Below, piece by piece: positions 2,980 to 63,780 of a stretch of DNA of 64,000 nucleotides. Source of the stretch: a virus; the IMG/VR virus record IMGVR_UViG_3300031997_000006, positions 1 through 64,000 of that record; one strand, written 5' to 3'. Under the pieces are notes generated by a model, which was not told where the DNA came from, searched no databases, and saw only the letters and a list, made by a program, of their open reading frames with translations. The position numbers and the translations under genes are program-made. The number at the start of each line of letters is the position of its first letter. Position 1 is the stretch's first letter.

Positions 2980-3005
2980 ATCAATAAATACAAACAAACA
3001 ACAAA

Positions 3006-6000
3006 TTGGAAAATAACATGATAGAATTATTAGGTACAGTAATCATAAACACACTGGACGCTAACACTTTAGAATTATTAGATACTAAAGAACAACATAA
3101 TGTAATAACAAAATACTTTTATTCTACATTAATAAATCGGTATCAAATAGCTTCTTCTTTATTTTTAGGGGATATTTATATTTCAACAGACACAGCTCCT
3201 AGTTACGAAGATTGGTGTAATGTAACAAATTGTAGTTCTGGAGGTTTTCTTCCATCAGGATTAACATCTCCACAATTTTATCCAGCTGTAGACGCAATTC
3301 CACCATATGTTCAATTAATGAGACGATTTAACGCACCTGGTTCTACAAGAAATATTAATAGTATATTATTACCTTACAACACTACTGTTTCTACTTTTTC
3401 AAGTTATAGTGCATTAGCATATGTTAAATTAACTGCTCCATGTGTTCAAACTAATACACAAATATTAGATGTATATTATAGAGTACAAGTAGTAAATATT
3501 TCATCATCTTATAATTTTAATAAGTTATCAATAACTCCAACAAGACTGTTAAACTCATTATTCGCTCTTTCAGATTATTCAATCCAATACAATATATTTC
3601 CACATATAACTTCTAATGGAGGGCATCTACCAATATATTCTCATGTTAATGCTTGTAATAATACAAATCCAACAGATATTGGGGCATTATATCCAAATTG
3701 TGCTGCAAATCGTAATATAACCAAACAAGCAACATTATCTGCTACGCCTTATCCTTTGTATAACCAAGTAACTTATAATTGGAGTTATACAACTACTCAA
3801 GATGTTGGTCATCTACTTGGAGCTTTAAGTATTTTTCCAGGTCGAACAACAACTAATCGTAATACTCCAGTAATGACAACTATAAATTTAGATGCTCCAA
3901 ATGGTAGTAAAATACAACCTATATTTAGTCACGCAGCTTCAACTTTAGCATTAACAACTGCTAATCCTTTTTTAGATACTATTCCTAGTTCAGGAACAGG
4001 TACATTAAATTATGAAGGTACATGGGCTACTGGTAACCTACCTGAATTATATAAAATTGAAATAATCGCTGGTGGAAGTATAGGGACAGCAACGTATACG
4101 TTTAGCAAACGAAATCATGTAGGTTTTGTTGGTGCTAATTATAATACTGATATTAGTTCATTACCAGGTATATATAATTATTCAGGTTATAATTTCACTA
4201 AACCACACACGTGTTGTACTGTAGCTGATATGAATACTGTTGGTGGATACGGTGAAAGAATGGAAGTATATGACAGTACACATTTTATAATGTATGATAC
4301 AACAGGTGTATCACGATATAATTGTGCAGATAATTCTATTGAACTGTGGGATAGTACTACTACTCCAGCATTGTCAGCCACAAACATAAGACAAGCTGCT
4401 GTTAATCCAGGAGATGGAACTATTTGGGTCGCTTGTGCTAATACAGGAATATATAAAATTAGTGCTGATGGATTATCAATTACTAATTATACAACTTCTA
4501 ACGGCTTACCTACAAATAATTGTTATGCAATTGATATTGGTAGAAATAATGCTGTATGGGCATTATGTAATGGTGGTATTGTAACATCAGATAATAATGG
4601 AGCAACTTGGACCACTTATAATGCTGGAACAACTCCAGCATTCAATAGTGCAGCAATCACAGGAGATTGGTCCTCAGTAAATTATATGCGAGTTGATCCT
4701 ACTCACGTAAATGATAGAATGTGTTTTGTACGGAAAGAAAATTGTAGTTTTAATAATACCAAAGGATTTGTGTGGTGGGATAGAGGAACTGGTGTTACTG
4801 TAGATACTACTATACCTAGTTTTGTAGGAGCTGTAAGTAGTGAGTCTAATCCTAGACGATGTCCATCAATGTTTAATGTATCAGATAATGATGGTTTGTG
4901 GATAGTATTACAGTCTAGTGTAACTTACACTGGTATAACCTACAATGCTATAAACAAATTAACATATGGATCTAGTACATATACATCGGTATGTCCTGCT
5001 TCTGGTTTTGTATATCCTAACGTAATGTTTGCTCGAAATACTACCAATACGCAAGATACTATATTACAAGTACAAGGAGACAACACCGGTGGATATAACA
5101 CTTGGTATTATATATCAACAGCAGTTTCAAGTTATATGGCAGGTATTCGCACGGTTGTATATGATAATACTCTTAGTTTATTATATAGTACATCAAGTAC
5201 TACTTACATAGGATCTCTTGTAAATGCTGCTATGATATATAGTGATATTCCAGTATTATTATATCTTGGAAATGGTATAATAGTAGGAAGTAAATATGAA
5301 GGATACGGGAGATTTGGTTTTATTCTTGCGTTAACAGGTGATAGTACTCCAACTAGTGGAACAATTGAATATTTAGCTTGGCAAAAATATGGATGGGATG
5401 GAACAAATTGGGTTTTAGGTAATACAACTCCTAAAACTACACATTCTGATGCACAACCTTTAATGCATGGTATTACTGCTAGATTTACAAACGGAGTTTC
5501 AGGAACATCATTTATCGGCGGTGATTATTATACAGGTAGTGTTAATGATGGTATATTAAAGAATAATGCTATGACTGTAGCAGGTTCTCATACAATGTAT
5601 GTACTTCCAACTCAAAACTTATTTGATTTTGATGGAGTAATTAGATTATATCCCTGGACAACTGGTGCTGTAACTTGGAGAAAAGTATCTGCATCCTTAA
5701 CCATTAACGGAGATAATTCATTAACAAATAATATTCCTTATAGGTCATATAACTTGAGTGCTGGATCTAAAAATAGAGTGTTTGGTGATTTTTCAATATC
5801 TGGTACTTTTTCCGTAAACGCTAATCAATATTATGCAGTAGGTATTACATATAATCATTTAACTGAAGCACCAAATATATTAACTTCTTATAATACTTGG
5901 TCTTTTAATTTAATAGGTAATGATGTTACTATTGTAAATAGTAGTAATACTACAGTTAATACTCCACCAGGTATTGGTAGTACTACTACTTGGAATATTA

Positions 6001-18396: not shown

Positions 18397-18858
18397 ATGA
18401 ATATAACATTAGATTTAATTATTAAAGATATAGCTAATGTGGATAGTGTATTGCAATATTATAGGGACGAGTTAGTGGATTTTAATACTCATCTACAAAT
18501 ACAATATAAACGAATTGATACAGCTGTAATTGAACAAGCCGGTTGGTATAGTTTTTATGATACTAAACGAGCAGAATTAAAAATAATTTATGAATATATG
18601 GAACTAAAATTAGCCACAATACATAGTATAAAGTGGCAAAAATTTACAGAGAAACACGATCGAGCCTTAACTCAAAAAGATAAAGAAGTATATATTAAAC
18701 ATGATGTTGATTATATAAATATGTCAATTCTTGTGTTACATACGAAAGAAGTGTATGAACAATATATGAGTATAGTTGATAGTTTTAAAATGCGAGGATA
18801 TAGTTTAAATAACTTAACCAAATTAAAAACAACAAATCAAGAAGATTGGGTTATATAA
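18397..18858 (+). CDS. uvsY: Recombination mediator, UvsY-like
   Basis: Helical 153 aa with RALT..D...YI and F..RGY.LNN motifs; between uvsX and helicase. Confidence 0.7.
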   Translation: MNITLDLIIKDIANVDSVLQYYRDELVDFNTHLQIQYKRIDTAVIEQAGWYSFYDTKRAELKIIYEYMELKLATIHSIKWQKFTEKHDRALTQKDKEVYIKHDVDYINMSILVLHTKEVYEQYMSIVDSFKMRGYSLNNLTKLKTTNQEDWVI

Positions 18859-20840
18859 TGAATGATGTCATAAGTATACCAAAATCTGTTAATATTACAT
18901 TATTAGATGAAGTACATTGTATAATTACAGGACTCTTTCCAATTGATAAAGATTATTTACACGACAAATATAATTTACTTACTAAAGATTATCTTTGGAA
19001 TGCATATTTTAAATTAGGTGTTTGGGATGGAAAAAAAGAGTTTTTTACTAAGAAAGGAAAAACATATATCTTTTTGTTGAATAATATTATCCCAATTGTT
19101 GTCAATTTTGGTTATAAAGTAAATTTAATTGATAAACGAACAGCAGTTACTCATACACCTGATGTTGTGGTTGATGCTAATTATTTTAATCATATTATTA
19201 ATCTAAAAACAAAAACACCTTACAAATTGGCAGATCATCAAATCGAAGCTGCAAATATGGCTATAAATTTAGGTAGTGGGATTTTATTAGCTGGGACAGG
19301 TTTTGGAAAATCTCAACCATTAACATCAAAAGTACTTACTCCTAATGGATGGGTACAAATGGGTGAGATTAAAATTGATGATTTAGTAATGACTCCTAAA
19401 AATACTATAACGAAAGTAATAGGAGTATATCCACAAGGTAATACAGATGTTTATAAAATAACTTGTAATGATGGAGCTACTGCTAGTTGTTGTGCAAATC
19501 ATTTGTGGATTGTTCATAATGATAAAACTGTTGCTAAAGGTAGTAAACCGTTTACAATATGTGATACTAAAGAATTATTTACACGTTCAAATATGAGTGT
19601 ACCTCATAGACCTCAAATTCCATTAATTCCAGTTGCAATTGATTTTAATAAAAAAGAATATACAGTATCTCCGTACGTTATGGGAGCTATAATACCGTTT
19701 TTATCTAAAGAATGTCAAGAATTAGTGATATTGGAGGGAATACCTAATAATATATTATCAAGATTACAATATAATCTTAGTTCTTATGGTATAGATGTTC
19801 ATTGGATGCGTGATAACTTATATCGTTTATGTTCTAATAATGAAAATGTTGAAGATATTAATAATATAATTGATTTACAACTTGATTATAATAATATTAA
19901 AATACCTGATGAATACATATACAGTACTTCAGCAGTACGTGCACTGTTTCTGAAAGGATTGTGTGATACATGTGGTAATATAACAAATATAGGTAGTATA
20001 AGTGTTATTAAGATTAAAGAATCATTAGCATTTCAAATTCAAGAAATGGTATGGTTACAAGGTGGAGCTTGTAAAGTTAGTTCATTTGCAATTACTATAC
20101 ATCATAAAGATCCCTGTGCGTTTTTTAGTAATATGAAATATGTTACAAATTATCTTAAGCATAGTAGTGATGCACACGGAAATAATTTGATGCATAGTAG
20201 GCGAGTTGATTATGTACAATTAGTTTCAAACGAACCAACACAATGTATATTAGTTGAAGACTCAGATCATTTATACATAACAGATAATTGTTTAATAACT
20301 CATAATACTATATTAAACGGTGTATTAATTGACATATATGGAAAACTTGGATGTAAAACAATTACAGTAGTCCCATCAAGTACATTAGTTACTCAAACTT
20401 TAAAACAGTTTGATATATTACAATTAGATGTTGGGCAATATGATGGTACAATAAAAGACCTTAACCATCAACATATTGTATCTACTTGGCAAACATTACA
20501 AAATAATCCAAATTTGATAAGATTGTTTCAAGTAATTATATCAGATGAGTGTGTACATCCTAGTACTAAAATTAAAACAGATATTGGTGAAGTATATATA
20601 AAAGATTTAAGTGTTGGTGATTTAGTATTAACATATAATGAATATACAAAATGTCAAGAATATAAACCAGTTAAAAAAATATACAAAAATTTACCAAAAA
20701 TACAAATTGAAAAAATATTTAAAATTACATTAGATAATAATAAAGAGTTAATTATTACAGGAAATCATAAAGTATTAACAGATAGTGGTTGGAAGCGGGT
20801 TGATGCATTAACATTAACAGATCAAGTACTATGTTTTTAG
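18858..20840 (+). CDS. uvsW: UvsW-like SF2 helicase N-part: N-extein, cis-intein, mid-extein, split-intein N-half
   Basis: GVWDG, Walker A GTGFGK|..|T, STWQ, ISDE followed by C1 of IntN; ATG overlaps the uvsY stop. Confidence 0.9.
   Translation: MNDVISIPKSVNITLLDEVHCIITGLFPIDKDYLHDKYNLLTKDYLWNAYFKLGVWDGKKEFFTKKGKTYIFLLNNIIPIVVNFGYKVNLIDKRTAVTHTPDVVVDANYFNHIINLKTKTPYKLADHQIEAANMAINLGSGILLAGTGFGKSQPLTSKVLTPNGWVQMGEIKIDDLVMTPKNTITKVIGVYPQGNTDVYKITCNDGATASCCANHLWIVHNDKTVAKGSKPFTICDTKELFTRSNMSVPHRPQIPLIPVAIDFNKKEYTVSPYVMGAIIPFLSKECQELVILEGIPNNILSRLQYNLSSYGIDVHWMRDNLYRLCSNNENVEDINNIIDLQLDYNNIKIPDEYIYSTSAVRALFLKGLCDTCGNITNIGSISVIKIKESLAFQIQEMVWLQGGACKVSSFAITIHHKDPCAFFSNMKYVTNYLKHSSDAHGNNLMHSRRVDYVQLVSNEPTQCILVEDSDHLYITDNCLITHNTILNGVLIDIYGKLGCKTITVVPSSTLVTQTLKQFDILQLDVGQYDGTIKDLNHQHIVSTWQTLQNNPNLIRLFQVIISDECVHPSTKIKTDIGEVYIKDLSVGDLVLTYNEYTKCQEYKPVKKIYKNLPKIQIEKIFKITLDNNKELIITGNHKVLTDSGWKRVDALTLTDQVLCF
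19311..20306 (+). mobile_element. Cis-intein (332 aa) in helicase Walker A with degenerate LAGLIDADG domain
   Basis: Starts SQPLTSKVLTPNGW, ends CLITHN, +1 Thr. Confidence 0.9.
20550..20840 (+). mobile_element. Split intein N-half (96 aa)
   Basis: CVHPSTKI block A, ITGNHKV block B, GWKR, then stop. Confidence 0.9.
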
Positions 20841-21946
20841 AACATTTTAATAAAATCAAGATTAAATCCTATCATAATCTTAATAGATATATAAAGTTAA
20901 TTCAATCAAGAGATTCTAATAGAAAGCTAATATATTTTGAAAAACATCACATACTACCAAGGTCATTATTTAAGGAGTTTGAAAATTCTGATTTTAATAT
21001 AATTAAACTTACCCCTAGAGAACATTTTATCGCACATTTATTACTTGCGCGTACGATTGGTGGAAAAATGTGGTTAGCTGTAAGGTGTATGGCTAACGCT
21101 AAACCAGCACAACTACATAGAGGTGAATATAAAGTTAATAGTAAAATATATGAAAGATTGAGAATTGAGAGTTCAAAAATAATTGCAACACTTGCTAAAA
21201 CTCGTAGAGCAAATGAAACATTGGAACAAAAAGTTAACAGGATTAAAAAATGGCAGGAAAATTTTTATAATAAAACATTGGAAGAAAAAACATTAATATG
21301 GAAAAGAAATTTACAAACTAGAATAATAAACGAAACAGTAACATATTTTATATGTAGTTGCATTTCTTGTAGAAGCACAACAAAAAATATTAATAGACAC
21401 AAGTGCAAGATACCAAAAGTTAAAATACTTAAAATACCTAAAATAAAAATTATCCCAATAAAACAAATACTAAACTATACTTGCCCTATATGCGATAAAA
21501 CAAATTTTAGAAATGAAACATTTTATAATATTCATATTATAAAATGTCAAATACGATATAATAACAAAATAGAGAAAGAACAAGCTCGAAAAAATCGTTT
21601 ATGTACTATATGCTTTAAACAATTTAATTCAAAACTTTGGTTTGATAAACATATAGAAATTGGAACTTGTCATTTACCTATTGAAGAACAGAAAAGAATA
21701 TCAAGAAATAAAGCGAGACAAACTATGAATAGTAAATCTATTGAAGAAAAAGAAATTTATGGACAATTAATATCTCAAAAACGTAAAATATATTTACAAT
21801 CACTTTCAGAAGAAGAATTGATATTATATCACAACAAATTACGAAAATCAGCACTTGCGTACTATGATAGCACTGCTTATAATCCAGCGATTAGATCTCA
21901 ACAAATTAAAGAAGGTTTAAAAAATGACAAACATTCTAAAAATTGA
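20831..21946 (+). CDS. Free-standing HNH homing endonuclease with C2H2/C2HC-like fingers
   Basis: EKHHILPRS...LTPREHFIAHLLL; CPIC..H and CTIC..H; overlaps both helicase halves. Confidence 0.85.
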   Translation: MFLEHFNKIKIKSYHNLNRYIKLIQSRDSNRKLIYFEKHHILPRSLFKEFENSDFNIIKLTPREHFIAHLLLARTIGGKMWLAVRCMANAKPAQLHRGEYKVNSKIYERLRIESSKIIATLAKTRRANETLEQKVNRIKKWQENFYNKTLEEKTLIWKRNLQTRIINETVTYFICSCISCRSTTKNINRHKCKIPKVKILKIPKIKIIPIKQILNYTCPICDKTNFRNETFYNIHIIKCQIRYNNKIEKEQARKNRLCTICFKQFNSKLWFDKHIEIGTCHLPIEEQKRISRNKARQTMNSKSIEEKEIYGQLISQKRKIYLQSLSEEELILYHNKLRKSALAYYDSTAYNPAIRSQQIKEGLKNDKHSKN

Positions 21947-22826
21947 AGAAATAGATTATATTGGTGATGTATATAATTTACATGTTGAAAATAATCATAA
22001 TTATATTGCAAATGGAGTAGTAGTATCAAATTGCCACGGAAGTCGTGCGAAAATACTCCAATCATTACTATCAGAGTACGGAAAGAATATTGCGCACAGA
22101 TTTGGGTTAACCGGTACATTACCAGATCACCCAGTTGATTTAATGTTAGTTAAAGTTGTATTAGGTGATGTAATATTTACATCATATGCAAAAGATTTAA
22201 TTGAAGCAGGTTGGTTAGCAACTCCTAATATTAGTATAGTGCAATTAAATGATGTAGCTTATTTACAAAAAAGTGGCGTAAATGAAATTGAACATTTATT
22301 ATATGAGGAAGAATTACATTTTTTAAAGAGTTGTATCACCCGACAACAATGGATTGCAAATTATATAATTGAAAAAAGTAAATCAAGTAAAATAGGTAAT
22401 ACATTGATATTAGTTAATAACATCGTGTACGGTAAACAATTAACAAAATTAATTCCAAATGCGGTATTTTTACATGGAAAAGATAAAGATGCTATAAGAC
22501 AAAAGGTATACGATTTATTTGAAGTTCAAGATGATTTAATTGTAATTTGTACAAAACAAATCGCAGGTGTAGGTTTATCGATAGACCGTATTTTTATTTT
22601 GATATATATAGATGGGGGGAAGTCATTTATAAATACAATTCAAACAATTGGTCGTGGTCTTAGAAAAGGTCGTGATAAAGATTCAGTAGACATTATCGAC
22701 ATATGTGGTAATATGGTTATATCAAATAACCATTTAAAACAAAGGATAAAGTATTATAAAGGTGCGAATTATTTTTATAAAAAACATACAATTGAATATT
22801 ATAATGGAGATATAAATTTGTGTTAA
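21924..22826 (+). CDS. uvsW: Split intein C-half (36 aa, 21924-22031) fused to UvsW helicase C-part
   Basis: VYNLHVENNHNYIANGVVVSN|CHG completes DECH; GLTGT and QTIGRGLR helicase motifs. Confidence 0.9.
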   Translation: MTNILKIEEIDYIGDVYNLHVENNHNYIANGVVVSNCHGSRAKILQSLLSEYGKNIAHRFGLTGTLPDHPVDLMLVKVVLGDVIFTSYAKDLIEAGWLATPNISIVQLNDVAYLQKSGVNEIEHLLYEEELHFLKSCITRQQWIANYIIEKSKSSKIGNTLILVNNIVYGKQLTKLIPNAVFLHGKDKDAIRQKVYDLFEVQDDLIVICTKQIAGVGLSIDRIFILIYIDGGKSFINTIQTIGRGLRKGRDKDSVDIIDICGNMVISNNHLKQRIKYYKGANYFYKKHTIEYYNGDINLC

Positions 22827-43118: not shown

Positions 43119-43787
43119 ATGAAAACAGATAAAGAATTAGGAAAGCGTGTATTTGAACATTTAAAAATTTTAGGACTTGAAACTCCTGTAACAAATTTAG
43201 TATATGTTAATGATGATACAAAAATTGAACAAATTGTGCCATTATTCAAGCAAATAATGGAAGTATTAGGACTAGATTTAAGTGATGATAGTTTAGCAGA
43301 AACTCCTCAACGTATAGCTAAAATGTACGTTAAGGAAATATTTTCTGGTTTAAATTACGATAATTTTCCTAAACTCACTGTAATTGAAAATAAGATGTCA
43401 TGTAGGGATGAATATATCCTTGAAAAAAATATAAAATTTAATTCAACGTGCGAACATCACTTTTTGCCAATTTTAGGTATAAACGGTGGTTGCCATGTGG
43501 CTTATATTCCAGATAAGTTCGTTGTAGGTTTATCAAAAATTAATCGTGTTGTTAAATTTTTTGCAAAAAATCCAGCTGTTCAAGAAAGAACTACTCATCA
43601 AATATTAGTGACATTACAATTTTTACTTGAAACTACAGATGTAGCTGTAGTTATTGATGCAGTGCATACTTGTGTTGCAACAAGGGGGGTTGAAGATGGA
43701 ACAAGTTCAACCAGTACTGCTGCAATTGGTGGAGTATTTAAAACTGATAAGCAAATTCGTGCAGAATTCTTTAACAATTGTAAGTAG
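43119..43787 (+). CDS. folE: GTP cyclohydrolase I
   Basis: ETPQRIAKMY, STCEHH, GLSKINR, VQER, H.C...RG. Confidence 0.95.
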   Translation: MKTDKELGKRVFEHLKILGLETPVTNLVYVNDDTKIEQIVPLFKQIMEVLGLDLSDDSLAETPQRIAKMYVKEIFSGLNYDNFPKLTVIENKMSCRDEYILEKNIKFNSTCEHHFLPILGINGGCHVAYIPDKFVVGLSKINRVVKFFAKNPAVQERTTHQILVTLQFLLETTDVAVVIDAVHTCVATRGVEDGTSSTSTAAIGGVFKTDKQIRAEFFNNCK

Positions 43788-44974: not shown

Positions 44975-46168
44975 ATGATTGAATTAACGGAATACCACAA
45001 AACATTATACGCAGATTTGTTACATTTAACAGACACCAATGAAGCGTTCTATTTCCGTGATAATATTAAAGACGATGTAACCTATCGTATTTTTACGTAT
45101 AGATTAGCATCATATTCTGATTTTTTATTGCCAGGTGCACTAGAATGTCGCGGAATTATGTTTGAATTGGCGAACGATCACCCTGTTCGATTAGCTTCAT
45201 TACCAATGGCCAAATTTTGGAATTGGAAAGAGAATCCCGCTACAACGAATCTCGACTTTCATAATTTTAAACAAATTATGCATAAATTGGACGGGAGCTT
45301 AATTTCGACTTTCCAACATAAAGGTATAGTTTATTTTAAATCTAAAACTGCATTATATTCTGATCATGCTAAAGCAGCTACTGATTATGCAATTAGTGTT
45401 GTACCTGATTATAGCAACAATATACAAACATCATTATATGATGAATTTAAAGTAATTGAAACTGCTGGACATACTGTTAATTGTGAGTTTACATCTCCAC
45501 ATTACCCATTTAGAATTGTTGTTGGTTATCAAGAACCAAAATTAACAATTCTAAATGTTCGTCATCGTGGAACAGGTGTTTATGTTACACTAGATGAAGT
45601 ACAAAATGTTTTAAATTTATTTTATAAAAATAAAAACGATCGAATGATTACTGCTCATTGGATCGAAACTGTTAATGTTGCTAATGATGAAATTGATGAT
45701 TTTATTAATTCTATTGATGCACAAACTGGAATTGAAGGTTATGTTATTCAATTACACGATGGAATGTTAGTTAAAATCAAAACTGATTGGTATCGTGCAT
45801 TACATCATGTTAAAGATAGTATTAATTGTATGCGTAGATTATTTGAAGCTGTTCTTGAAGAAACAACTGATGATTTAAGATCAATGTTATATGATGATCC
45901 AGTTTCATTAGAACGCATTAATGATATGGAAATTAAAGTTGTTCATATTTATAATAGCACTATTAAAAATGTTGAATCTTTCTATGAAGATAATGTTAAC
46001 CTAGATCGAAAAGATTATGCTATAAAGGGACAGCAAATACTTTCACATCTTGAGTTTGGTTTAGCAATGAATAAATATAGTGGAAAAATAATTGATTATA
46101 AAGGTATAATTAAAAAGAATTATAAATCATTTGGTATTATAGAAGATGAACCTGAACTAACTGAATAA
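44975..46168 (+). CDS. rnlA: RNA ligase 1 (T4 gp63-like)
   Basis: ECRG, KF.N, KLDGS, EGYV, KIK motifs. Confidence 0.9.
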   Translation: MIELTEYHKTLYADLLHLTDTNEAFYFRDNIKDDVTYRIFTYRLASYSDFLLPGALECRGIMFELANDHPVRLASLPMAKFWNWKENPATTNLDFHNFKQIMHKLDGSLISTFQHKGIVYFKSKTALYSDHAKAATDYAISVVPDYSNNIQTSLYDEFKVIETAGHTVNCEFTSPHYPFRIVVGYQEPKLTILNVRHRGTGVYVTLDEVQNVLNLFYKNKNDRMITAHWIETVNVANDEIDDFINSIDAQTGIEGYVIQLHDGMLVKIKTDWYRALHHVKDSINCMRRLFEAVLEETTDDLRSMLYDDPVSLERINDMEIKVVHIYNSTIKNVESFYEDNVNLDRKDYAIKGQQILSHLEFGLAMNKYSGKIIDYKGIIKKNYKSFGIIEDEPELTE

Positions 46169-47781: not shown

Positions 47782-47890
47782 GGCATTCATTGCGCACTGT
47801 TGTTCCTGATTCGCCGTGCTCATGCACAACAGTCAAGTTCTTCGACAGTTCGACTTATGTGATTTCTTTTCTCAGAGGCAATGCCTTTGC
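47782..47890 (-). ncRNA. Putative omegaRNA/reRNA scaffold overlapping tnpB 3' end
   Basis: GGCATT/AATGCC, CTGTTGT/ACAACAG and GTGC/GCAC pairings; expected position for TnpB RNA. Confidence 0.5.
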
Positions 47891-48926
47891 CCAACAATAG
47901 AGTATTAATCGCAGCATTTATGTCACGATCATGCGTAGCTCCACAACTACAACTCCACTGTCTTACTGCAAGCCCATCAAAACCACTCGGACCAGTCAGG
48001 TCTCCGCAATTTGAACAGGTCTTGGTGGAATTTCTATTACTTACCAGAACTAATTCTCCAAATCCATCAATTCTTGACGCTAATTTGTTTTTTAGTAGTT
48101 CTCGTATTTTGCCAAGTGCTAAATTGGCGTACTGCTTTCCATATTTTTGAATTAATCCCTTAAAATTATCATCTGACCAGAATATTTTTACATATATCGC
48201 AGCCAAATAAGTAGTTAATTTATGGTGGTGATCAGTTCTTTGATTTGTGATCTTTCTTTGTAGATATTTTAATTTTTTCGAGTTCTTTGATTTCCTCTGC
48301 AAATTACCAATTTTCTTTTCTGCATCTTGGTAGAATTTTGGAAAATCAATTTGTACTCCATCACTCAATGTCAAACTTGTTTTTAAACCAGGATCAATTC
48401 CTGCTTCTTTTCCATCTGTTATTTCTATTTTTTCTCTTGTTTGGTCATAACAACAACTCACATACCAACAATCGAATTTCTTAATCAATGTACATTTTTT
48501 TAATTTGCCCGTGAATTTACCTGATTCACTGATTTTTAAAGTTGTCTTTAATCCAGGGATTTTTAATCTGCCTGATTTGTCAAACTTGATATCACCTGCA
48601 AAATAAAAACTTTTCTTTTGTCTACAATTTTTATAATGTAGTCTGTGAATTCCGTGTTTCTTAAAACTTGTTAACACCGCTTGAATACAACAATTAATCA
48701 ATGCACTTGGAATTCCACATTTCTTGCTATGTCCAATTATCTTTTTTGATAATATACTTCTGAGTTGTATATCAGACATGAACATATACGCAAACCAGTT
48801 CTCGTCAAGTTCGTACTTGATTTGATTAATTACCCAATTTTCAATTCCAATAGCACTCCACAAGAAGTCATTGAGGACTTGTTCTTGTTTCTTAGTTGGA
48901 TAAATTTTGTGTGAAATATTAATCAT
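47820..48926 (-). CDS. tnpB: RNA-guided endonuclease TnpB homolog, possibly catalytically altered
   Basis: IYPT..Q, GIDPG, CSNCG..WSCSCG zinc finger, DRDINAA; likely ATG at 48926. Confidence 0.9.
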   Translation of the reverse strand: MINISHKIYPTKKQEQVLNDFLWSAIGIENWVINQIKYELDENWFAYMFMSDIQLRSILSKKIIGHSKKCGIPSALINCCIQAVLTSFKKHGIHRLHYKNCRQKKSFYFAGDIKFDKSGRLKIPGLKTTLKISESGKFTGKLKKCTLIKKFDCWYVSCCYDQTREKIEITDGKEAGIDPGLKTSLTLSDGVQIDFPKFYQDAEKKIGNLQRKSKNSKKLKYLQRKITNQRTDHHHKLTTYLAAIYVKIFWSDDNFKGLIQKYGKQYANLALGKIRELLKNKLASRIDGFGELVLVSNRNSTKTCSNCGDLTGPSGFDGLAVRQWSCSCGATHDRDINAAINTLLLGKGIASEKRNHISRTVEELDCCA

Positions 48927-49017
48927 AAATATATTATGGCTGCTCCTATAATACGTATCCACTGCTTTTTCAACTGATGAAAATGAGATGTGTAGAACCA
49001 ATTACAGCTATATAAAG

Positions 49018-49046
49018 TTGATTTATATTATATAATATGGTATAAT
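49018..49046 (+). promoter_or_regulatory. sigma70-like promoter
   Basis: TTGATT-17-TATAAT. Confidence 0.7.
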
Positions 49047-49052
49047 ATACCT

Positions 49053-49259
49053 ATGAAAATAAAAGATATTATACCTGGTATGCGTTGTACAGTTAATAGA
49101 CATGGAGATATCTATTTTGACACAGCTATAAGACTATTTTTGGGAGCTGATTGTATTGTAATTAAAATAACTAAATCAGGGTTAGTTCAAGTGGCATTAA
49201 CAGAATTTCCTAAACAAGTATACAGTGTACCAGCTCATAATATATCTTTATTACTTTAA
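49053..49259 (+). CDS. Small hypothetical protein (SH3-like), possibly leaderless
   Basis: ATG 6 nt after the -10 box. Confidence 0.5.
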   Translation: MKIKDIIPGMRCTVNRHGDIYFDTAIRLFLGADCIVIKITKSGLVQVALTEFPKQVYSVPAHNISLLL

Positions 49260-49303
49260 TATAAGATAAACTAATTAATGGTATATAGTATATAGGAGAG
49301 AAT

Positions 49304-49891
49304 ATGAATAGGTCTAACAAATTAATAGTGCGAGATATTGATGATATGATATCAACAAATTTAATAGTTCGACATAAAGGAGGGTCTCATGCTTACGGTA
49401 CAAATATTGAAACATCAGATATTGATATTCGTGGTATATTCTGTGCAGATGCAGTAAATATTTTAACTCCTTTTTATAAAGTTGAACATAAAGTTGAACA
49501 GAAAGTGGTATTAGATAAAGATATTGATATTACAATGTATGAGTTGTGTAGATTTGTAGAATTATACACTGCAGGAAATCCGAATATACTCGAGACACTC
49601 TGGATTGATCAAGTTGATATATTAGAAAGTACTACAGAGTACGGTATTTTAAGGGCTGTACGCCAAAATTTATTAAGTTCCAAAGTAGCTTTTACATTTA
49701 CAGGCTATGCCTCTGCCCAAGCATCAAAATTAAAATCTCGTAGTAAAAATGTAAGTTATGAAGAAGATTTACAGATGTTGATTAATATATTACAACAAGG
49801 ACTTCAAGATAAATTAATTGATTTAGAATTTATAGAACGTGAATGTGGAGATATAGTATTACAATATTTATTAAATAAAAAATTAATATAA
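49304..49891 (+). CDS. Pol-beta superfamily nucleotidyltransferase, N-fragment
   Basis: GSHAYG...SDIDIRGIF, YEL..F, GNPNILETLW, F.GYA..Q. Confidence 0.85.
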   Translation: MNRSNKLIVRDIDDMISTNLIVRHKGGSHAYGTNIETSDIDIRGIFCADAVNILTPFYKVEHKVEQKVVLDKDIDITMYELCRFVELYTAGNPNILETLWIDQVDILESTTEYGILRAVRQNLLSSKVAFTFTGYASAQASKLKSRSKNVSYEEDLQMLINILQQGLQDKLIDLEFIERECGDIVLQYLLNKKLI

Positions 49892-49910
49892 GAATATTAA
49901 AGGTATTTGC

Positions 49911-50942
49911 TTGGATGAATTAATTATAAAAATTAAACAACATTTAACACGAAAAGATGGTAGATTAAATAATCATAGAATAACAGGAAATATAAGTACT
50001 GAAAATGCACAATTAATATCAGAGTTGGTAGAATTGACAAATTTTTTAGACGATTCTGCATCTATACCACAAAGATGGTGGCATATTAAAAGTAATATAT
50101 TATATATACCTAGTTGTGAAAAGTGTGGAGCAAATACTAAATTTAAAGATAATAGGTATGACAGATATTGTTCCCATAATTGTGCAGTTACATCAATTGA
50201 AAATTCTATAAGAACAAGTAATGCATTTAAAGGTAAACTTGTTCCGCCTGAACGAGTATTGCGATCAAAAGAAACAAGAATAAAAAATGGATATTATAAA
50301 GATCGTGAATCAACAATTAAAAAATTTAGTCAATCAAAACAAGGTGCGAATAATCCATGTTATGGTAAACATCCTTGGAATTGGGGATTAAGAGGAGCAG
50401 AATGTCCTAATTATGGAACTAAAAAAGCAGAACATACTAAACGCTATGGAATAGATAATAACTTATTTGGAAAACCTGCACCGAAAAATGCAGGGCGAGG
50501 AGTGCATGGTAGATTTAATAATATACATTTTAGAAGTAGTTTAGAATTATGTTATTTAATATACTGGTATCGTAATAATATTGAAGTAGTATCTGCTGAA
50601 ACTAAAACATTTCGTGTACAATATTATGATCAATTTAATAATATTAGATCATATGTACCTGATTATTATATTCCTATTACAAATGAATTATATGAAATAA
50701 AACCAAAGTTTTTTCAAACTAATACACAAGTACAAGAAAAATTTAAAACACTTATTAAATACCATACAGATAAAATATGTAAGTTTGGAAGTGGATATGA
50801 ATTAATAGATACTATACAAGATATTATGTATAATATTTCACAATACATTGAAAATAATATATTAATAATATCAGAATCTCAACTTGAAAAACTAGAGAAA
50901 AATCGTAATGAAATCATTAGAACAATTATACATTCATTATAA
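49911..50942 (+). CDS. Homing endonuclease: zinc finger, NUMOD3-like repeats and TnsA-like PD-(D/E)xK domain
   Basis: CEKC..YCS..C; NPCYGK/NLFGK; FRSSLE..Y.PD..EIK. Confidence 0.75.
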   Translation: MDELIIKIKQHLTRKDGRLNNHRITGNISTENAQLISELVELTNFLDDSASIPQRWWHIKSNILYIPSCEKCGANTKFKDNRYDRYCSHNCAVTSIENSIRTSNAFKGKLVPPERVLRSKETRIKNGYYKDRESTIKKFSQSKQGANNPCYGKHPWNWGLRGAECPNYGTKKAEHTKRYGIDNNLFGKPAPKNAGRGVHGRFNNIHFRSSLELCYLIYWYRNNIEVVSAETKTFRVQYYDQFNNIRSYVPDYYIPITNELYEIKPKFFQTNTQVQEKFKTLIKYHTDKICKFGSGYELIDTIQDIMYNISQYIENNILIISESQLEKLEKNRNEIIRTIIHSL

Positions 50943-51612
50943 CAAACGAAAAAATTACCGTAGTACTACAAAATTATGCAAACCAAAAGAGATAGATTAT
51001 GTATCTCTAGTTCATAATTTTACAGATGCTAAAATTTTTAGTATTGATATTAAAGACTATCAACATGGATACAGATTAATACCGTATGGTGATGCTTTAT
51101 TTGGTTTGTATAAAGTTGATGGTTATGATACATTTGATGATCGTGGCTCATTAAATACAACTTTTGATCCTGAAACTGGATTTTTTACTGAAGATGATCA
51201 ACGTAGATTACCAATGTTTATTCTTAAGTTTGCTAAACAAGAATATAATCGTGTTCACACTGATTGGAAAAATTATTGGGAGTGGAAAATTAACAGAAAT
51301 GTAATTCGTGGTGCAATGGAAGAAACATTTGGTTATGACGGAAAGAACGCACTCCATTTAGTTCGCCTTATGAAAATGGGAGCTGAGATCTTAGAAACTG
51401 GTATTGTTAATGTTAAACGACCAGATGCTGCTGAATTATTAGCAATTCGGAATGGTTCGTGGTCTTATGAAGAGTTATTAGAATATTCTGAATATATGGA
51501 TAATAAAATTCGTAATGAATTGTATCATACAACATCGTTGCCTAAAGTTCCAAATATCAAATTGGCTGCAAAAACGATTTTAGAAGTTCAAGAATCAATG
51601 TGGCATAAATGA
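50908..51612 (+). CDS. Nucleotidyltransferase, C-fragment
   Basis: YW.W...RN..R..E..GYD.K...HLVRL..MG.E.L...RPDA.ELL.IR.G. Confidence 0.85.
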   Translation: MKSLEQLYIHYNKRKNYRSTTKLCKPKEIDYVSLVHNFTDAKIFSIDIKDYQHGYRLIPYGDALFGLYKVDGYDTFDDRGSLNTTFDPETGFFTEDDQRRLPMFILKFAKQEYNRVHTDWKNYWEWKINRNVIRGAMEETFGYDGKNALHLVRLMKMGAEILETGIVNVKRPDAAELLAIRNGSWSYEELLEYSEYMDNKIRNELYHTTSLPKVPNIKLAAKTILEVQESMWHK

Positions 51613-51613
51613 T

Positions 51614-52222
51614 ATGAAATTGAACACTATATTAATAGAAAATCCACAAATAATTCCAGGTTTAGATAAACTTGAAGATTTAGATATTTATAATGTCAAT
51701 AAAGCGTTATTTCAAACTCTTATACATCGAGCTCAGTTTATATATCATAAATTTAATGATACACATATAGTATATGTAGCAAACAATGAGTATTTTTGTT
51801 TGGATTATGATTTGAAAAAAATTTCATATTATATGAAATATGAAGTTGGTCAAACACCTATATTGGGAACATACTTATGGCAATCATTAATATGGCGTGC
51901 TAAACAAACTCCTTATATTAAGACACTACCCCACGATATATTTTTTAATACTTTATTACCAAAATATGGTACTATATGTACAGATGGACAACAAATTAAT
52001 GATGGTAGAGATTTCTGGGAATATCAAATAATATATGCTCTTAACAACAATATAAATGTATATTATCATAATATGCAAAATAAAGATTTAATTAAAATTA
52101 AAAATAATATGCATTTTCATAAATTAATAAGTCAGTATGACATATGGGGTGATACTTTACAATATCAAAAAAAACGTATGGTAATAACAAATCATATATT
52201 ACCACAAAGTAATATGAAGTAA
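51614..52222 (+). CDS. Putative head-packaged protein, GNAT-like
   Basis: MKLNTILIENP leader; I.TD..Q...G..FW resembles the GNAT C-terminal motif. Confidence 0.45.
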   Translation: MKLNTILIENPQIIPGLDKLEDLDIYNVNKALFQTLIHRAQFIYHKFNDTHIVYVANNEYFCLDYDLKKISYYMKYEVGQTPILGTYLWQSLIWRAKQTPYIKTLPHDIFFNTLLPKYGTICTDGQQINDGRDFWEYQIIYALNNNINVYYHNMQNKDLIKIKNNMHFHKLISQYDIWGDTLQYQKKRMVITNHILPQSNMK

Positions 52223-52280
52223 TAAATGATTTGAAGAGCGATTGAAAATAATGCAATTCAAATAATACTAGACTATTAAT

Positions 52281-52946
52281 ATGAACCTTAATAATGCAAG
52301 AAAACATTTTCCGTTAATAATTGAACAAGCTCACCGAAACTTTGATAATATCATTACAGAACACCCTGGTATGATTGAAGTAGTTGAAAACGCGGCTGTA
52401 GAGTTAGTTGATATTAAAATGGCTAGAGTATCTAAATTAATAATTTTGCGAAAAATTATAGATAAATTTAACGATATTATATATTCTTATACAGCTTGTA
52501 GTAAAGGATGCTCATCTTGTTGTTACATGGCAACATTAACATTTTCAATAGAAGTTGAAGAAATAGGAATACGTGTTGGGAAAAAACCAAAACCTTTTAA
52601 AGGTATATTTAAAAATATTGATGATGCAACATTAACTAAAGTACAAGATGAAATTCAAGGTATTCCATGTACATTTTTAAAAGATAATCAATGTTCTATT
52701 TATGATATAAGACCATTAGCTTGTAGATTACACCATAACTTATCTGAAGTATCATTTATGTGTGATACTTCACTTAAATCTGAAGATACCTGTATTCCAA
52801 AAATCGATTTCCCACAATTCACTTTTGCTATGGTAGTAATGCTCAGTGGTGATGGAAATAAAATGGGAGATATTAGAGAAGCATTTCCCACTTCTGCAAA
52901 ATCTATTTATCAAATAGGTGATAATCATGTTAATAACAAAATGTAG
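52281..52946 (+). CDS. YkgJ/CxxCxxCC Zn or Fe-S cluster protein
   Basis: CSKGCSSCC, CTFL..CSIY..RPLACR. Confidence 0.85.
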   Translation: MNLNNARKHFPLIIEQAHRNFDNIITEHPGMIEVVENAAVELVDIKMARVSKLIILRKIIDKFNDIIYSYTACSKGCSSCCYMATLTFSIEVEEIGIRVGKKPKPFKGIFKNIDDATLTKVQDEIQGIPCTFLKDNQCSIYDIRPLACRLHHNLSEVSFMCDTSLKSEDTCIPKIDFPQFTFAMVVMLSGDGNKMGDIREAFPTSAKSIYQIGDNHVNNKM

Positions 52947-58358: not shown

Positions 58359-59240
58359 TCATGTACCTACAGTGTTACCAAATACACTTGCATGAACACG
58401 ATGACAATAGATATATCCTCGCTTAATACATTTTAAAGCAACACCTTTTGCAATGTCTTGTTGCTGCTCCATAGTACACGCCATTGGCATAATATATACT
58501 TTTTGGTTTGCAGAGCTATCATTAGCAGAATATAGTTTCATAACATCAGCAACTTCATCAAAATCTGTATCATTGTCTCCACATACAAACTTAAAATATT
58601 GTATATGTCCCGACACATAACGTTGCATATTAGCAATATTAGGATTAATAGCTACTTCTCGCTTTTCACCACTAACAGACAATTTTGGACTATTACTCCA
58701 AACAATCTTACGGTGTCTACCTCTCATGCTACCATTGTATTCCCATTCATTTAAACTGTCAATGAATGTTTGTTTTAATGGGACAGAACAGTTTGTTTCA
58801 ATAATAACTGTTTCAACTGATACCAATATAGGTTCATTCAATAATTCAATAATTTGCTTTTGTTTAAGAGTTGGTTCTCCTCCTGTTAATGATAATATAA
58901 TGGGAAGTCCTGATCTGGATTTCCAAGAATAATTTGGTAATAAACTTGTTACAACCTCTGCTAACTCTTTAATATCATATCTTTTCCAAAGATGTTTAAA
59001 TCTTTTATCCCAAGAATAAATCGAATCACACCCACGAGTTATAAGAGGAATATCTTCTAATTTTGTATAATCTGCTGGGTCAAAACCAAGTACTTCATTC
59101 GTAATTTCAACCATTTCAGGGTTATTAAACCCCGCACATGTAAAATTGCAACCTGCAAATCTAATGTAAGCTGTTGGATATCCGGCAAACATCGCTTCGC
59201 CTTCTATACTTAAAAAAATTTCACTCACTGGTGCTGTCAT
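58359..59240 (-). CDS. queE: 7-carboxy-7-deazaguanine synthase (radical SAM)
   Basis: EIF.SI.GE, IRF.GCN..C..(insert)..CD, TGGEP, IETN, SPKL, K.V. Confidence 0.9.
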   Translation of the reverse strand: MTAPVSEIFLSIEGEAMFAGYPTAYIRFAGCNFTCAGFNNPEMVEITNEVLGFDPADYTKLEDIPLITRGCDSIYSWDKRFKHLWKRYDIKELAEVVTSLLPNYSWKSRSGLPIILSLTGGEPTLKQKQIIELLNEPILVSVETVIIETNCSVPLKQTFIDSLNEWEYNGSMRGRHRKIVWSNSPKLSVSGEKREVAINPNIANMQRYVSGHIQYFKFVCGDNDTDFDEVADVMKLYSANDSSANQKVYIMPMACTMEQQQDIAKGVALKCIKRGYIYCHRVHASVFGNTVGT

Positions 59241-60210: not shown

Positions 60211-60300
60211 ATGAAAGTGCAAGCATTATTTGAAATGATGATAAATTTGCGAACACCACAAACTGATGATAAAGTTTTACCGTATGTTGATTTATATTAA
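60211..60300 (+). pseudogene. Truncated gene start (29 aa) abutting the endonuclease
   Basis: AGGA SD, MKVQALFEMMINL...PYVDLY, then stop overlapping the convergent endonuclease 3' end. Confidence 0.4.
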
Positions 60301-61383
60301 TTTATTATAATCAGATTCCCACATAACAACAAGATTATAACCTAAATTTTTAATTTTTTGTTCACGATCAATAGTTTTTTGATATAATTCACCCATTGTC
60401 TTGTATATTAATGTATTATAAAAATCTGAAGTATATATATTGGTATTTCCATGATAATAATCACCATAAAACTCATATATAGTATTTGTTGACTCACAAT
60501 AACCATCAGCTTTATATCTTGTAGTTTTTATTTTGTGTTCTCCTATATTACCCGCATGTTGAATAAATATATTTTCACTTTGCATAATTGATTCAATCCA
60601 ATTAATACTCTTTTGACTGTGTCCCATAGAATTACATTTACTACACCCACTACCATTTAAATGTGAGTTTGGTATTTGTGGAAAATCACCATGTTTATTA
60701 CAATGTAATATAATTTTACTATCACTTTTTACATATACTACTTTTGAATAATCGTATTTGTTATTATGAATTAAATTTGCTTGAACAATAAACTCTTCAG
60801 TCGAACTAACACGACCAGTACATTTAATACATCCAGTACCGCACAAATGATAATGAGGTTTTTGTGGAAATTCACCATGTATTTTACAAAAAATAATTAC
60901 TTCTGTAAGAGCATTGATAAAATCAACTTTTGAGTAATTATATTTATTTCCGTGAACTAATTTAGCTTTTTTAATAAAATCTGAAGTTGATTTAACTTTA
61001 CCTCCACATAATGGACACCCACTACCACTCAAATGTGAATCAGGCTTTTGTGGAAATTCACCGTGTAGTTTACAAATTATTATCACTTCAGTGTTATTTT
61101 TTATATAGTCAACATTTGAATAATCGTATCTTTCACTATGAATTAATTTTGCACTTTTAATAAATTTAACAGTAGTAGATCTACGATTAACTATTCTACA
61201 AAAAGGACACCCATGACCAGTTAAATGATCTTCTGGTTTTTGTGGAAACTCTCCATGCTTATTACAAATAATAATAACTTTAATATTACTTTTTATATAA
61301 TCAACTTTTGAGTAATCATATAAATCACCATGTTTTAACCTTGCTTTTGTTATAAATTCTGGTAATGTAGTTTTTCTTGTCAT
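60292..61383 (-). CDS. Homing endonuclease: four DUF723-like zinc repeats plus Vsr/EDxHD-like nuclease domain
   Basis: Repeats YDYS.V.Y..C..HG.F....HL.G.GC..C; ADGY...EFYGDYYHG...WESD. Confidence 0.8.
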   Translation of the reverse strand: MTRKTTLPEFITKARLKHGDLYDYSKVDYIKSNIKVIIICNKHGEFPQKPEDHLTGHGCPFCRIVNRRSTTVKFIKSAKLIHSERYDYSNVDYIKNNTEVIIICKLHGEFPQKPDSHLSGSGCPLCGGKVKSTSDFIKKAKLVHGNKYNYSKVDFINALTEVIIFCKIHGEFPQKPHYHLCGTGCIKCTGRVSSTEEFIVQANLIHNNKYDYSKVVYVKSDSKIILHCNKHGDFPQIPNSHLNGSGCSKCNSMGHSQKSINWIESIMQSENIFIQHAGNIGEHKIKTTRYKADGYCESTNTIYEFYGDYYHGNTNIYTSDFYNTLIYKTMGELYQKTIDREQKIKNLGYNLVVMWESDYNKLI

Positions 61384-63126: not shown

Positions 63127-63780
63127 ATGTTTAACCATTTTAATATTAACGAAACAGGACGAGATTTTGTAGTAGGAGATATACATGGATGTTTTGACCA
63201 ACTACGAACAGCTTTATTATCAGTTGATTTTTTGTATGATACTGATAGGTTGTTTTGTGTTGGAGATTTAGTCGATCGGGGTCCTAATTCAGAAGAATGT
63301 ATCGAGTGGTTGCAAAAACCTTGGTTTTATTCTATTCGCGGGAACCACGAGCAAATGGCAATCGATTATCTAGCTGGTTCGTATGCTACTAATATCTATC
63401 TCGCTAACGGAGGTGCGTGGTTTATCGGATTAACACACATAGAACAAATTGATATTGTAAATGAGTTTATAGCACTACCAATTGCACTTGATATTCAAAC
63501 TAAAAATGGATTAATAGGGCTTGTACACGCTGAGTGTCCAGTAAATGATTGGACACAATTAGAAATTGAATTTGCTGGAATTAGTTCTAGAATATATATT
63601 GAAATATGCATATGGTATCGAACACGATTTAATTGTAACATTACCAGTCTTGTTGATAATGTTGCTCAAATTTATGTTGGACATACTCCAACACTTGAAC
63701 CTAAGCAACTAGGTAATGTAAATTATATTGACACAGGTGCTGTATTTGGTAATAAATTAACAATTATACAAATTAATTAA
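63127..63780 (+). CDS. Ser/Thr protein phosphatase (NinI/PphA-like metallophosphoesterase)
   Basis: GDIHG, GDLVDRG, RGNHE, GHT, IDTGA. Confidence 0.92.
   Translation: MFNHFNINETGRDFVVGDIHGCFDQLRTALLSVDFLYDTDRLFCVGDLVDRGPNSEECIEWLQKPWFYSIRGNHEQMAIDYLAGSYATNIYLANGGAWFIGLTHIEQIDIVNEFIALPIALDIQTKNGLIGLVHAECPVNDWTQLEIEFAGISSRIYIEICIWYRTRFNCNITSLVDNVAQIYVGHTPTLEPKQLGNVNYIDTGAVFGNKLTIIQIN

Follow-up and report, generated by a model that had tools for sequence, protein, structure and literature searches.

How might a phage enzyme outlast the cutting of its gene in two by a homing-endonuclease gene? The question is raised by a locus in a 64,000-nucleotide (nt) stretch of viral DNA (hereafter the window: positions 1-64,000 of IMG/VR virus record IMGVR_UViG_3300031997_000006; all coordinates are window positions), in which a gene for a nucleotidyltransferase (NTase) of the RlaP/NrdC.11 type is present as two open reading frames (ORFs), here the N-half and the C-half, between which lies a free-standing gene for an endonuclease. 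The parent virus record is 73.6 kb long and was judged about 20% complete, the endonuclease protein occurs also on the record of a 273-kb contig, and the source of the window is an uncultivated jumbo phage whose DNA is contained in sediment metagenome runs. A preliminary description of the locus proposed that the mobile element had supplied the broken enzyme with dimerisation tags of its own making, namely an acidic helical tail on the N-half and a basic leader on the C-half. The alignments and profile searches presented here show the tail and the leader to be, at the level of sequence, the two halves of a five-helix insert of about 75 amino acids (aa) that is a single piece in unbroken relatives. 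We argue that the gene was broken in a surface loop of this insert and that its two products would come together without splicing.

The arrangement first described, three ORFs with a 19-nt gap between the N-half and the endonuclease and a 35-nt overlap between the endonuclease and the C-half, was reproduced by our ORF list (Table 1); all three ORFs lie on the same strand, and both NTase ORFs are open and of full length. The N-half matches Pfam RlaP (PF10127) over residues 19-150 (E 1.1e-15; 58.4 bits against a gathering cut-off of 23) and positions 28-170 of the profile phrog_388 (7e-35). The C-half returned no match in the Pfam search and matches positions 178-335 of phrog_388 (1.4e-24), and since the two ORFs thus occupy consecutive stretches of one profile they are parts of one nucleotidyltransferase, as had been claimed. 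The N-half retains the invariant columns of two family alignments, for instance G27, S28, D39, D41, D75, Y135, A136 and Q139; the Pol-beta catalytic motif is among them (G27, S28, D39, D41 and D75 are invariant with the window included), and the same residues are invariant in an alignment of 20 intact sequences. Residues 26-234 of the C-half are 85% identical to residues 146-354 of P0001, an intact protein of 360 aa, and its M1, E5 and L7 are invariant across six split forms.

The wider family consists mostly of proteins of about 345 aa. In these short forms (about 345-362 aa; for instance P0001 and gp104 of the Pseudaeromonas phage KLEP7) a G-Y-A helix is followed by a linker of 12-13 aa and then by the C-terminal domain. 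Long forms of 410-457 aa (P0139, P0136, P0141, P0150 and P0012, and in the cultured phages CBB gp159 and GAP32 gp154) carry about 75 additional residues exactly where the short forms have the linker. The statement in the preliminary description that intact homologs run through this point with only a short linker is accordingly correct for 67 of the best 80 loci (below) and incorrect for the long forms. With BLASTP, residues 14-190 of the N-half align to residues 8-179 of the intact long form P0139 (428 aa; 42% identity) and residues 1-232 of the C-half to its residues 192-422 (44% identity), so that only 12 residues, P0139 180-191, lie between the aligned halves. The tail also aligns without a gap to P0005 129-175. 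A profile built from six tails and searched against 267 family proteins matched 7 intact proteins of at least 400 aa, always directly after the G-Y-A helix (P0141, 4e-17; P0136, 1e-14; P0005, 2e-14; P0139, 2e-13; and more weakly P0232, 5e-6; P0150, 2e-5; P0239, 6e-3), and a leader profile matched P0139 195-221 at 3.6e-5. An AF2 model of P0139 (predicted local distance difference test score, pLDDT, 90.6; predicted template modelling score 0.82) forms the insert from helices 141-157, 163-170 and 172-180, a loop at 181-194 (pLDDT of the block 72) and helices 195-201 and 206-215. The break in the window maps to this predicted loop, so that the N-half keeps three of the insert helices and the C-half the other two; among intact long forms the loop differs in both length and sequence. 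N-half-only proteins bearing the tail form several clusters in a library clustered at 50% (P0135, P0143, P0145, P0151 and others).

Because P0139 and other intact homologs hold these segments, a finding that the preliminary description had itself named as contrary to its idea, the tail and the leader are not new tags, and the description of them as add-ons stands only in relation to the closest intact relatives of the window gene (P0001, P0002, P0004 and P0006), all of which are short forms without either segment. Tags brought ready-made by the element, oppositely charged and foreign to the enzyme family, would agree with that absence, with the low third-position GC content of the tail, which matches that of the endonuclease gene, with the position of the 11 opening leader codons inside the endonuclease ORF and with the precedent of the Aeh1 NrdA protein discussed below. 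The charges reported for the window were likewise borne out (net -4 for the tail, N-half residues about 146-195, and +6 for the leader, C-half residues 1-26). The acidic-tail and basic-leader pattern, however, is found in just three of six split forms (the window, L005 with -2/+2 and L010 with -5/+2) and is absent from L006, L007 and L008. The two segments are contiguous in intact P0139, the tail is present in the 7 intact proteins listed above, and a homologous tail stands beside an unrelated GIY-YIG endonuclease in another contig (below), while the most confident predicted contacts between the halves lie in the native cores. The further expectation that such tags would be seen flanking endonucleases in unrelated host genes was not borne out by the profile search: neither profile matched in the 20 loci with more distant relatives of the endonuclease (L011-L030), or elsewhere in the window, which has what looks like another endonuclease-split gene. 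A search with the tail alone returned just the window's own protein, a weak result because the method needs shared 5-residue words. We therefore regard tags made by the element as very unlikely.

The same layout recurs in other contigs. When IMG/VR was scanned with an alignment of the endonuclease family, 26 loci were returned, and in all 6 that have a near-full-length endonuclease (L005-L010) the order is N-half, endonuclease, C-half; L006 and L009 are alike, which leaves 5 distinct contigs. In four of these (L005, L007, L008 and L010) the 3' end of the endonuclease gene and the start of the C-half share 29-38 nt, and the split layout is kept across contigs although the endonucleases are only 40-46% identical. 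A second scan used the NTase alignment, from which the best 80 of at least 531 confirmed loci were kept and classed with three segment profiles. Sixty-seven of these are short forms with the 12-13-aa linker, none of them broken at the site, and five are intact long forms (L040, L056, L101, L107 and L109). Three are split by a window-type endonuclease (L039, L041 and L073, the same contigs as L008, L007 and L005), one (L044) has a complete GIY-YIG endonuclease with NUMOD3 (Pfam 4e-8) splitting it at the same loop, two (L069 and L070) hold a GIY-YIG remnant, one (L036) has lost a window-type endonuclease save for its last 25 or so codons, and one (L082) has the N-domain only. Thus 7 of the 80 loci are broken at the site, and the tail is present in all six of the sequences read (L070, which has the same coordinates as L069, was not among the six). 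The tail of L044 aligns without a gap to residues 139-175 of the intact protein P0173, which means that homologous tails flank two unrelated endonuclease families. The codons retained in L036 hold the start of a C-half that is still separate, and the deletion is borne out by DNA alignment to L007, this pair being our nucleotide-level comparison of an occupied and an emptied site. Single-protein queries of IMG/VR (C-half, N-half and P0139) brought up no relatives; the alignment-based scans alone worked.

These forms can also be read in the reverse direction, with the insert derived from sequence carried by the endonuclease and the intact long forms produced by re-fusion after the endonuclease gene was deleted, yielding a new protein module. 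Short, long and split forms are indeed intermixed in the N-core tree, where the split L007 pairs with the short P0034, the split L008 with the short P0007, and P0135 (split) with P0139 (long). The family is mostly about 345 aa in length, the loop between tail and leader is variable in intact long forms, and L036 demonstrates that the endonuclease gene can be deleted with its 3' end left in place. L036 nevertheless remains split, with no re-fusion, and no recognisable endonuclease remnants are found in the intact long forms, as judged from proteins. The distant long forms P0232, P0239 and P0173 already have the insert, and the presence of homologous tails beside two unrelated endonuclease families is simpler if the insert came first. 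On balance this direction seems to us unlikely. A related possibility is that the endonuclease and the insert halves travel as one mobile cassette, which breaks a short-form RlaP gene and supplies a ready-made interface, and that, when the endonuclease is later lost, the gene may either stay split for good, as in L036, or be fused in frame into an intact long form with a new helical module; we consider this somewhat unlikely.

An import does appear to have taken place in the phage of the window, whose gene is a mosaic. Typical homologs are about 53% identical to the window in the core of the N-half (N-core) and about 44% in that of the C-half (C-core), and this relation is reversed in the four closest intact relatives (N-core/C-core identities: P0001, 64/85; P0002, 63/77; P0004, 62/75; P0006, 59/70). 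In a quick tree of the C-core the window is sister to P0001 inside the clade of these four short-form genes (support of 98 and 97 in the Shimodaira-Hasegawa-like approximate likelihood ratio test), and clade-diagnostic residues are those of the short-form clade against the split and long forms by 43 to 2 in the C-core and by 8 to 3 in the N-core. A tree that joins the N-core of the window to the P0001 clade was not rejected (approximately unbiased test, p 0.618; log-likelihood 2.4 higher); joining it to all split and long forms gave p 0.03, a value that is confounded because the constraint also pushes the split and long forms into one clade. GC content and GC content at third codon positions are 0.315/0.186 in the N-core, 0.207/0.06 in the tail, 0.261/0.087 in the endonuclease gene and 0.316/0.177 in the C-core, so that the tail, on the strength of its 50 codons, resembles the endonuclease gene in composition and differs from the N-core. 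Because the window branches within a group of four short forms, a single gain of a block comprising tail, endonuclease and leader is more parsimonious than three losses, and the block probably entered a short-form gene of this phage as one unit. In that limited sense the tails would have come with the element after all: the suggestion that the element brought them fails in so far as they are not new sequence, and holds in so far as phylogeny and GC content point to their having been imported here together.

Do the two products find each other? Complex modelling of the halves, which had been proposed as a check, supports their predicted association: the N-half with the C-half scored 0.86 in three runs, compared with 0.01 for the best of 3 controls, and the runs share at least 98% of contacts with a partner pLDDT of 84. 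Contacts predicted with the highest confidence run from N-half residues 81-85, 100, 112-116 and 124-132 to residues 154-171 and 201-228 of the C-half, and in the model this is the native interdomain interface, including the C-terminal helix; the interface list includes in addition 23 tail residues (146-191) and 15 leader residues (1-25). According to the excerpted text of the RlaP preprint, the crystal structure of PfRlaP has a cleft between two domains, and the helix at its extreme C-terminus lies packed against two NTase-domain helices. Given that two-domain structure, the break in the window lies between the two domains, and the contacts predicted for the halves fit the PfRlaP structure as its authors describe it. 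A search of the P0001 sequence against PDB sequences gave nothing relevant, and a Foldseek search with the P0139 model gave only weak matches to two-domain nucleotidyltransferases (HalB, ANT(4'), AAD(9) and KNTase), the best with an E of 1.1e-3 and a template modelling score of about 0.2-0.3.

Alternatively, the insertion might have killed the gene and the two ORFs might be decaying, functionless remnants. The terminal branch of the N-core, at 0.59 compared with 0.093 for the C-core, and its identity of 64% to the nearest relatives are what such decay could produce. Both ORFs are nonetheless open and of full length and retain every invariant residue of the family, the complex model passes, the split layout has persisted while the endonucleases diverged to 40-46% identity, and the start of the C-half was preserved in L036 after the endonuclease was lost. 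We judge a dead gene to be highly improbable; the retained residues, the persistence of the layout and the C-half start of L036 are indirect signs that a two-piece enzyme is kept in use.

A covalent joining of the halves, by a group I intron, a split intein or ribosomal bypassing, would have some grounds in the habits of this gene family, since in-frame insertions of 1029-1062 nt are found at the GYD motif in 8 of the 80 loci and P0005, P0023 and P0041 too carry an in-frame insertion of about 345 aa at that motif. Pfam did not recognise the insertion of P0005 as an intein (E<=0.001), for which reason we term these insertions intein-like, from their ends and length only. At the window itself there were no Rfam matches at E<=1 within 48900-52300 and no Hint or intein Pfam domain on any of the three ORFs, in agreement with the preliminary description, which had noted neither intein nor intron. 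The halves are separated by a 19-nt non-coding gap and a 1-kb ORF, and in P0139 the sequence of tail and leader is an ordinary part of the enzyme. Covalent joining is thus exceedingly improbable.

Taken as a whole, the explanation we consider likely is the following. A free-standing endonuclease gene sits inside an RlaP/NrdC.11 gene, in a surface loop of the five-helix insert, and the halves would be translated separately and would reassemble without splicing. Reassembly would proceed mainly through the interface that the two domains natively form, of which the packing of the C-terminal helix on the NTase domain is a part, and the two pieces of the insert would contribute further contacts. The insert loop may be a permissive site used by several selfish elements, and in this phage homing with co-conversion of the flanks would have copied the block of tail, endonuclease and leader into a short-form gene.

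Several results weigh against this explanation or parts of it. The leader profile found nothing significant among the first 123 intact homologs, which leaves the homology of the leader to intact forms leaning mainly on P0139, and the tail profile misses CBB and GAP32, whose insert is only positionally equivalent. The N-core tree, in which the long branch given above appears, does not place the window, and the N-core is oddly divergent from P0001 at 64%, compared with 85% for the C-core; for these reasons the case for cassette import leans on the C-core, parsimony and composition. The N-core is fast-evolving, and an imported cassette leaves its rate unexplained. Neither a donor allele nor an empty-site allele was found at the DNA level; a joint skipping the endonuclease gene was likewise absent from the contigs of four sediment runs, in which coverage is thin and broken. 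RNA runs containing window DNA were absent among the runs listed. Finally, split halves of a single chain tend to pass complex prediction through their likeness to the intact fold, and the calibration of the 0.86 mark (which 116 of 157 solved complexes attain, as do 2 of 215 mismatched pairs) holds only roughly because the alignments were shallow (12 and 6 rows).

The endonuclease combines a Cys4 zinc-finger region in its N-terminal part with NUMOD3 repeats and with a TnsA-like PD-(D/E)xK nuclease domain in its C-terminal part (about residues 194-319), and 13 homologs of 37-49% identity were found. C69, C72, C87 and C91 are nearly invariant across this family, and E212, D251, E262 and K264 are invariant in 13 sequences. 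NUMOD3 is matched by 12 of 13 family members (best 5.9e-10), the window copy scoring 20.5 bits against a Pfam cut-off of 20.4; Tn7_TnsA-like_N (PF08722) is matched by 10 of 13 (best 2.8e-6), the window copy not among them at E<=0.05. For an AF2 model of the endonuclease (pLDDT 80.6) the top fold match was TnsA (VIA-align Z 7.8, where a Z below 8 may reflect merely a common arrangement; root-mean-square deviation 3.4 A over 123 residues; 12% sequence identity), followed by VRR-NUC, Vsr (Z 5.5) and I-Bth0305I (Z 5.1), and Foldseek gave TnsA a probability of 0.96 with an E of 0.08. The earlier assignment to a zinc-finger, NUMOD3 and TnsA-type nuclease is upheld by the conserved cysteines, the NUMOD3 matches and the modelled fold, and holds at the superfamily level only. 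A tblastn search against phage records gave two partial matches only, and phmmer and profile searches against PDB sequences gave nothing below E 0.1. Indirect support for a homing function comes from the occupation of the same site in 5 other contigs and from the mosaic gene. Separately, we observed distant relatives of the endonuclease in L013, L014, L015, L019 and L026 (around 2000-5000), lying between ORFs of about 100 aa and about 430 aa downstream of a gp32-like gene; the short ORF stops just past a G-L-E-x-C-V motif, and, to judge from the ORF ends, these loci resemble a 'fractured gene' of the split-intein kind whose N-intein piece is very short.

With regard to the function of the host gene, the excerpted text of the RlaP preprint reports that RlaP enzymes add one or two nucleoside monophosphates to the 3'-OH of RNA, with damaged RNAs preferred, reports that activity for PfRlaP and PaRlaP only, and labels T4 NrdC.11 an RlaP. 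The RNA-ligase neighbourhood on which the name of the RlaP family is based is present at the window, where a T4 Rnl1-like RNA ligase gene lies 3 kb upstream, and a gene for a calcineurin-like metallophosphoesterase is also found. The combination of RNA ligase, phosphoesterase and RlaP gene suggests an RNA-repair set. In KLEP7 (L003, 1252-2496) a CCA-adding enzyme beside the intact RlaP is annotated as the adjacent gp106 and gp105, which may represent another split gene.

As to expression, promoter-like sites at the locus are no more frequent than expected by chance (30 found, shuffles giving 26.1 +/- 4.9), and the terminator count is 0. A hairpin in the spacer upstream of the endonuclease start was no better than in shuffles (z -0.51), and we therefore claim no regulatory hairpin; one stands out in L007 only (z -2.14), where it covers the ribosome-binding site. 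We also observed ATAAATA-type motifs, resembling T4-type late promoters, in the spacers between N-half and endonuclease of L005, L007, L008 and L010; the 19-nt spacer of the window has neither such a motif nor a hairpin convincingly.

Other elements are found in the window (Table 1). A second apparent gene in pieces is a helicase gene split around a homing endonuclease. A TnpB gene lies just upstream of the split NTase gene, and an intein-bearing clamp-loader gene and a free-standing HNH endonuclease gene are also present. Contigs of the sediment runs hold a variant of 48531-48936 with about 8-10% differences, either a second copy or another strain, and one odd joint from 49258 to 48738. The GTP cyclohydrolase and QueE-like genes are of the kind serving 7-deazaguanine synthesis, which may be linked here to DNA modification.

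Table 1. Features of the split nucleotidyltransferase locus and other genes of the window discussed in the text (window positions).
Feature	Position	Strand	Basis or remark
N-half of RlaP/NrdC.11-type nucleotidyltransferase (Pol-beta NTase domain and tail)	49304..49891	+	ORF of 195 aa; Pfam RlaP, phrog_388
Tail, codons 146-195 of N-half; first three helices of long-form insert	49739..49888	+	alignments and tail profile
Spacer of 19 nt, N-half stop to endonuclease TTG start	49892..49910	.	ORF list
Free-standing putative homing-endonuclease gene, 343 aa, TTG start	49911..50942	+	ORF, Pfam, alignment, fold
Dual-coding overlap of 35 nt, last endonuclease codons and first 11 C-half codons including ATG	50908..50942	+	ORF list
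Leader, codons 1-25 of C-half; last two helices of long-form insert	50908..50982	+	alignment and leader profile
C-half of nucleotidyltransferase, 234 aa; C-terminal domain, GYD.K..H.VRL motif	50908..51612	+	ORF, phrog_388, P0001
T4 Rnl1-like RNA ligase	44975-46165	+	phrog_562 2.4e-95; Pfam T4_Rnl1_C 2e-21
Calcineurin-like metallophosphoesterase	63127-63777	+	
Apparent split helicase locus, whole	18846-22823	+	
Helicase N-part, 664 aa	18846-20837	+	
Homing endonuclease, phrog_655/HNH	20831-21943	+	7-nt overlap with helicase N-part
Helicase C-part	21924-22823	+	phrog_16 positions 385-613; 20-nt overlap with endonuclease
Clamp-loader (gp44-like) gene with intein, 845 aa	25772-28306	+	Pfam Intein_splicing 1.3e-10, LAGLIDADG_3 4e-5
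TnpB / IS605 OrfB-type gene	47820-49001	-	Pfam OrfB_IS605, Cas12f1-like TNB; phrog_506 8e-57
GTP cyclohydrolase gene	43119-43784	+	
QueE-like radical-SAM gene	58362-59240	-	
Free-standing HNH endonuclease gene	60295-61383	-	phrog_681, phrog_559

Splice-free rescue of phage genes split by endonucleases is known from few cases: Aeh1 nrdA, T4 gene 39/60 and phage 25 gene 43. The metagenomic loci described here add a natural series that runs from intact short and intact long forms, through genes split by two endonuclease families, to one from which the endonuclease has been lost, with intein-like insertions elsewhere in the gene. This series makes it testable whether a pre-existing surface module confers tolerance of fracture or whether a mobile element supplies the module; if the mobile-cassette reading were true, domain insertions in phage enzymes would have a source in homing endonucleases. 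Annotations should describe each of the two NTase ORFs as half of a single enzyme.

The closest parallel among known systems is nrdA-a/mobE/nrdA-b of phage Aeh1, in which, in the excerpted text of Crona et al. 2011 (PMC3045599), a free-standing homing endonuclease likewise splits a gene of nucleic-acid metabolism and overlaps the downstream half, the halves bear C- and N-terminal tails, and neither RNA splicing nor protein splicing is involved in restoring function. In the same text the tails borne by NrdA-a and NrdA-b, which arose with the insertion of mobE, are indispensable for activity and are proposed as a general way to neutralise gene fragmentation; the precedent cited in the preliminary description is therefore sound, and its central idea was already in print. 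The systems differ in that the Aeh1 host gene encodes a ribonucleotide reductase and its endonuclease is of the HNH type, whereas the window has an RlaP NTase and a TnsA-like PD-(D/E)xK enzyme. The Aeh1 tails are described as unique and as having arisen during insertion (PMC3045599); tails of that type would be absent from all intact homologs, whereas those of the window are the halves of an insert that intact homologs possess. Aeh1 is a single case with biochemistry, and the layout of the window, known from sequence and model, recurs in several contigs.

The fractured genes of Dassa et al. 2009 also have a phage enzyme gene in halves with an endonuclease ORF between them, whose 3' end overlaps the downstream half by 6-69 bp in 15 loci, according to the excerpted text (PMC2677866). 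Most of those loci use split inteins, whereas the window has no intein halves at the break, and their endonucleases are Vsr-like with a D/H/D active site, in contrast to the E..D..ExK residues of the window enzyme, which is nearest to TnsA. One SbcD-like split locus in that text has no intein and carries a 25-aa tail and a 9-aa leader (PMC2677866). RlaP is not among the terms found in the same excerpts (PMC2677866).

In the excerpted text of PMC2988022, T4 gene 39/mobA/60 and gene 43 of phage 25, the latter with a seg-like insertion, are split phage genes whose products must reassemble, and the split gene 43 of phage 44RR, with an untranslated spacer and no endonuclease, parallels L036; the host genes and endonuclease families of all three differ from those of the window. 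T4 mobD, between nrdC.11 and mobD.1, associates a free-standing homing endonuclease with the same host gene family, but this HNH enzyme adjoins nrdC.11 and is not inside it, and its target is listed there as unknown (PMC2988022). The endonuclease itself resembles TnsA of Tn7, I-Ssp6803I and I-Bth0305I in its restriction-endonuclease-like fold and its acidic and lysine catalytic motif, the comparison with I-Ssp6803I resting on the excerpted published text (PMC2677866). Some members of PD-(D/E)xK homing endonuclease families also bear NUMOD3 repeats, and the transposon partners of TnsA, TnsB and TnsC, are not present at the window. Among the papers listed in our literature searches, none describes a split RlaP/nrdC.11 gene, and the locus is, for a known phenomenon, a new host gene together with a new and little-described endonuclease family.

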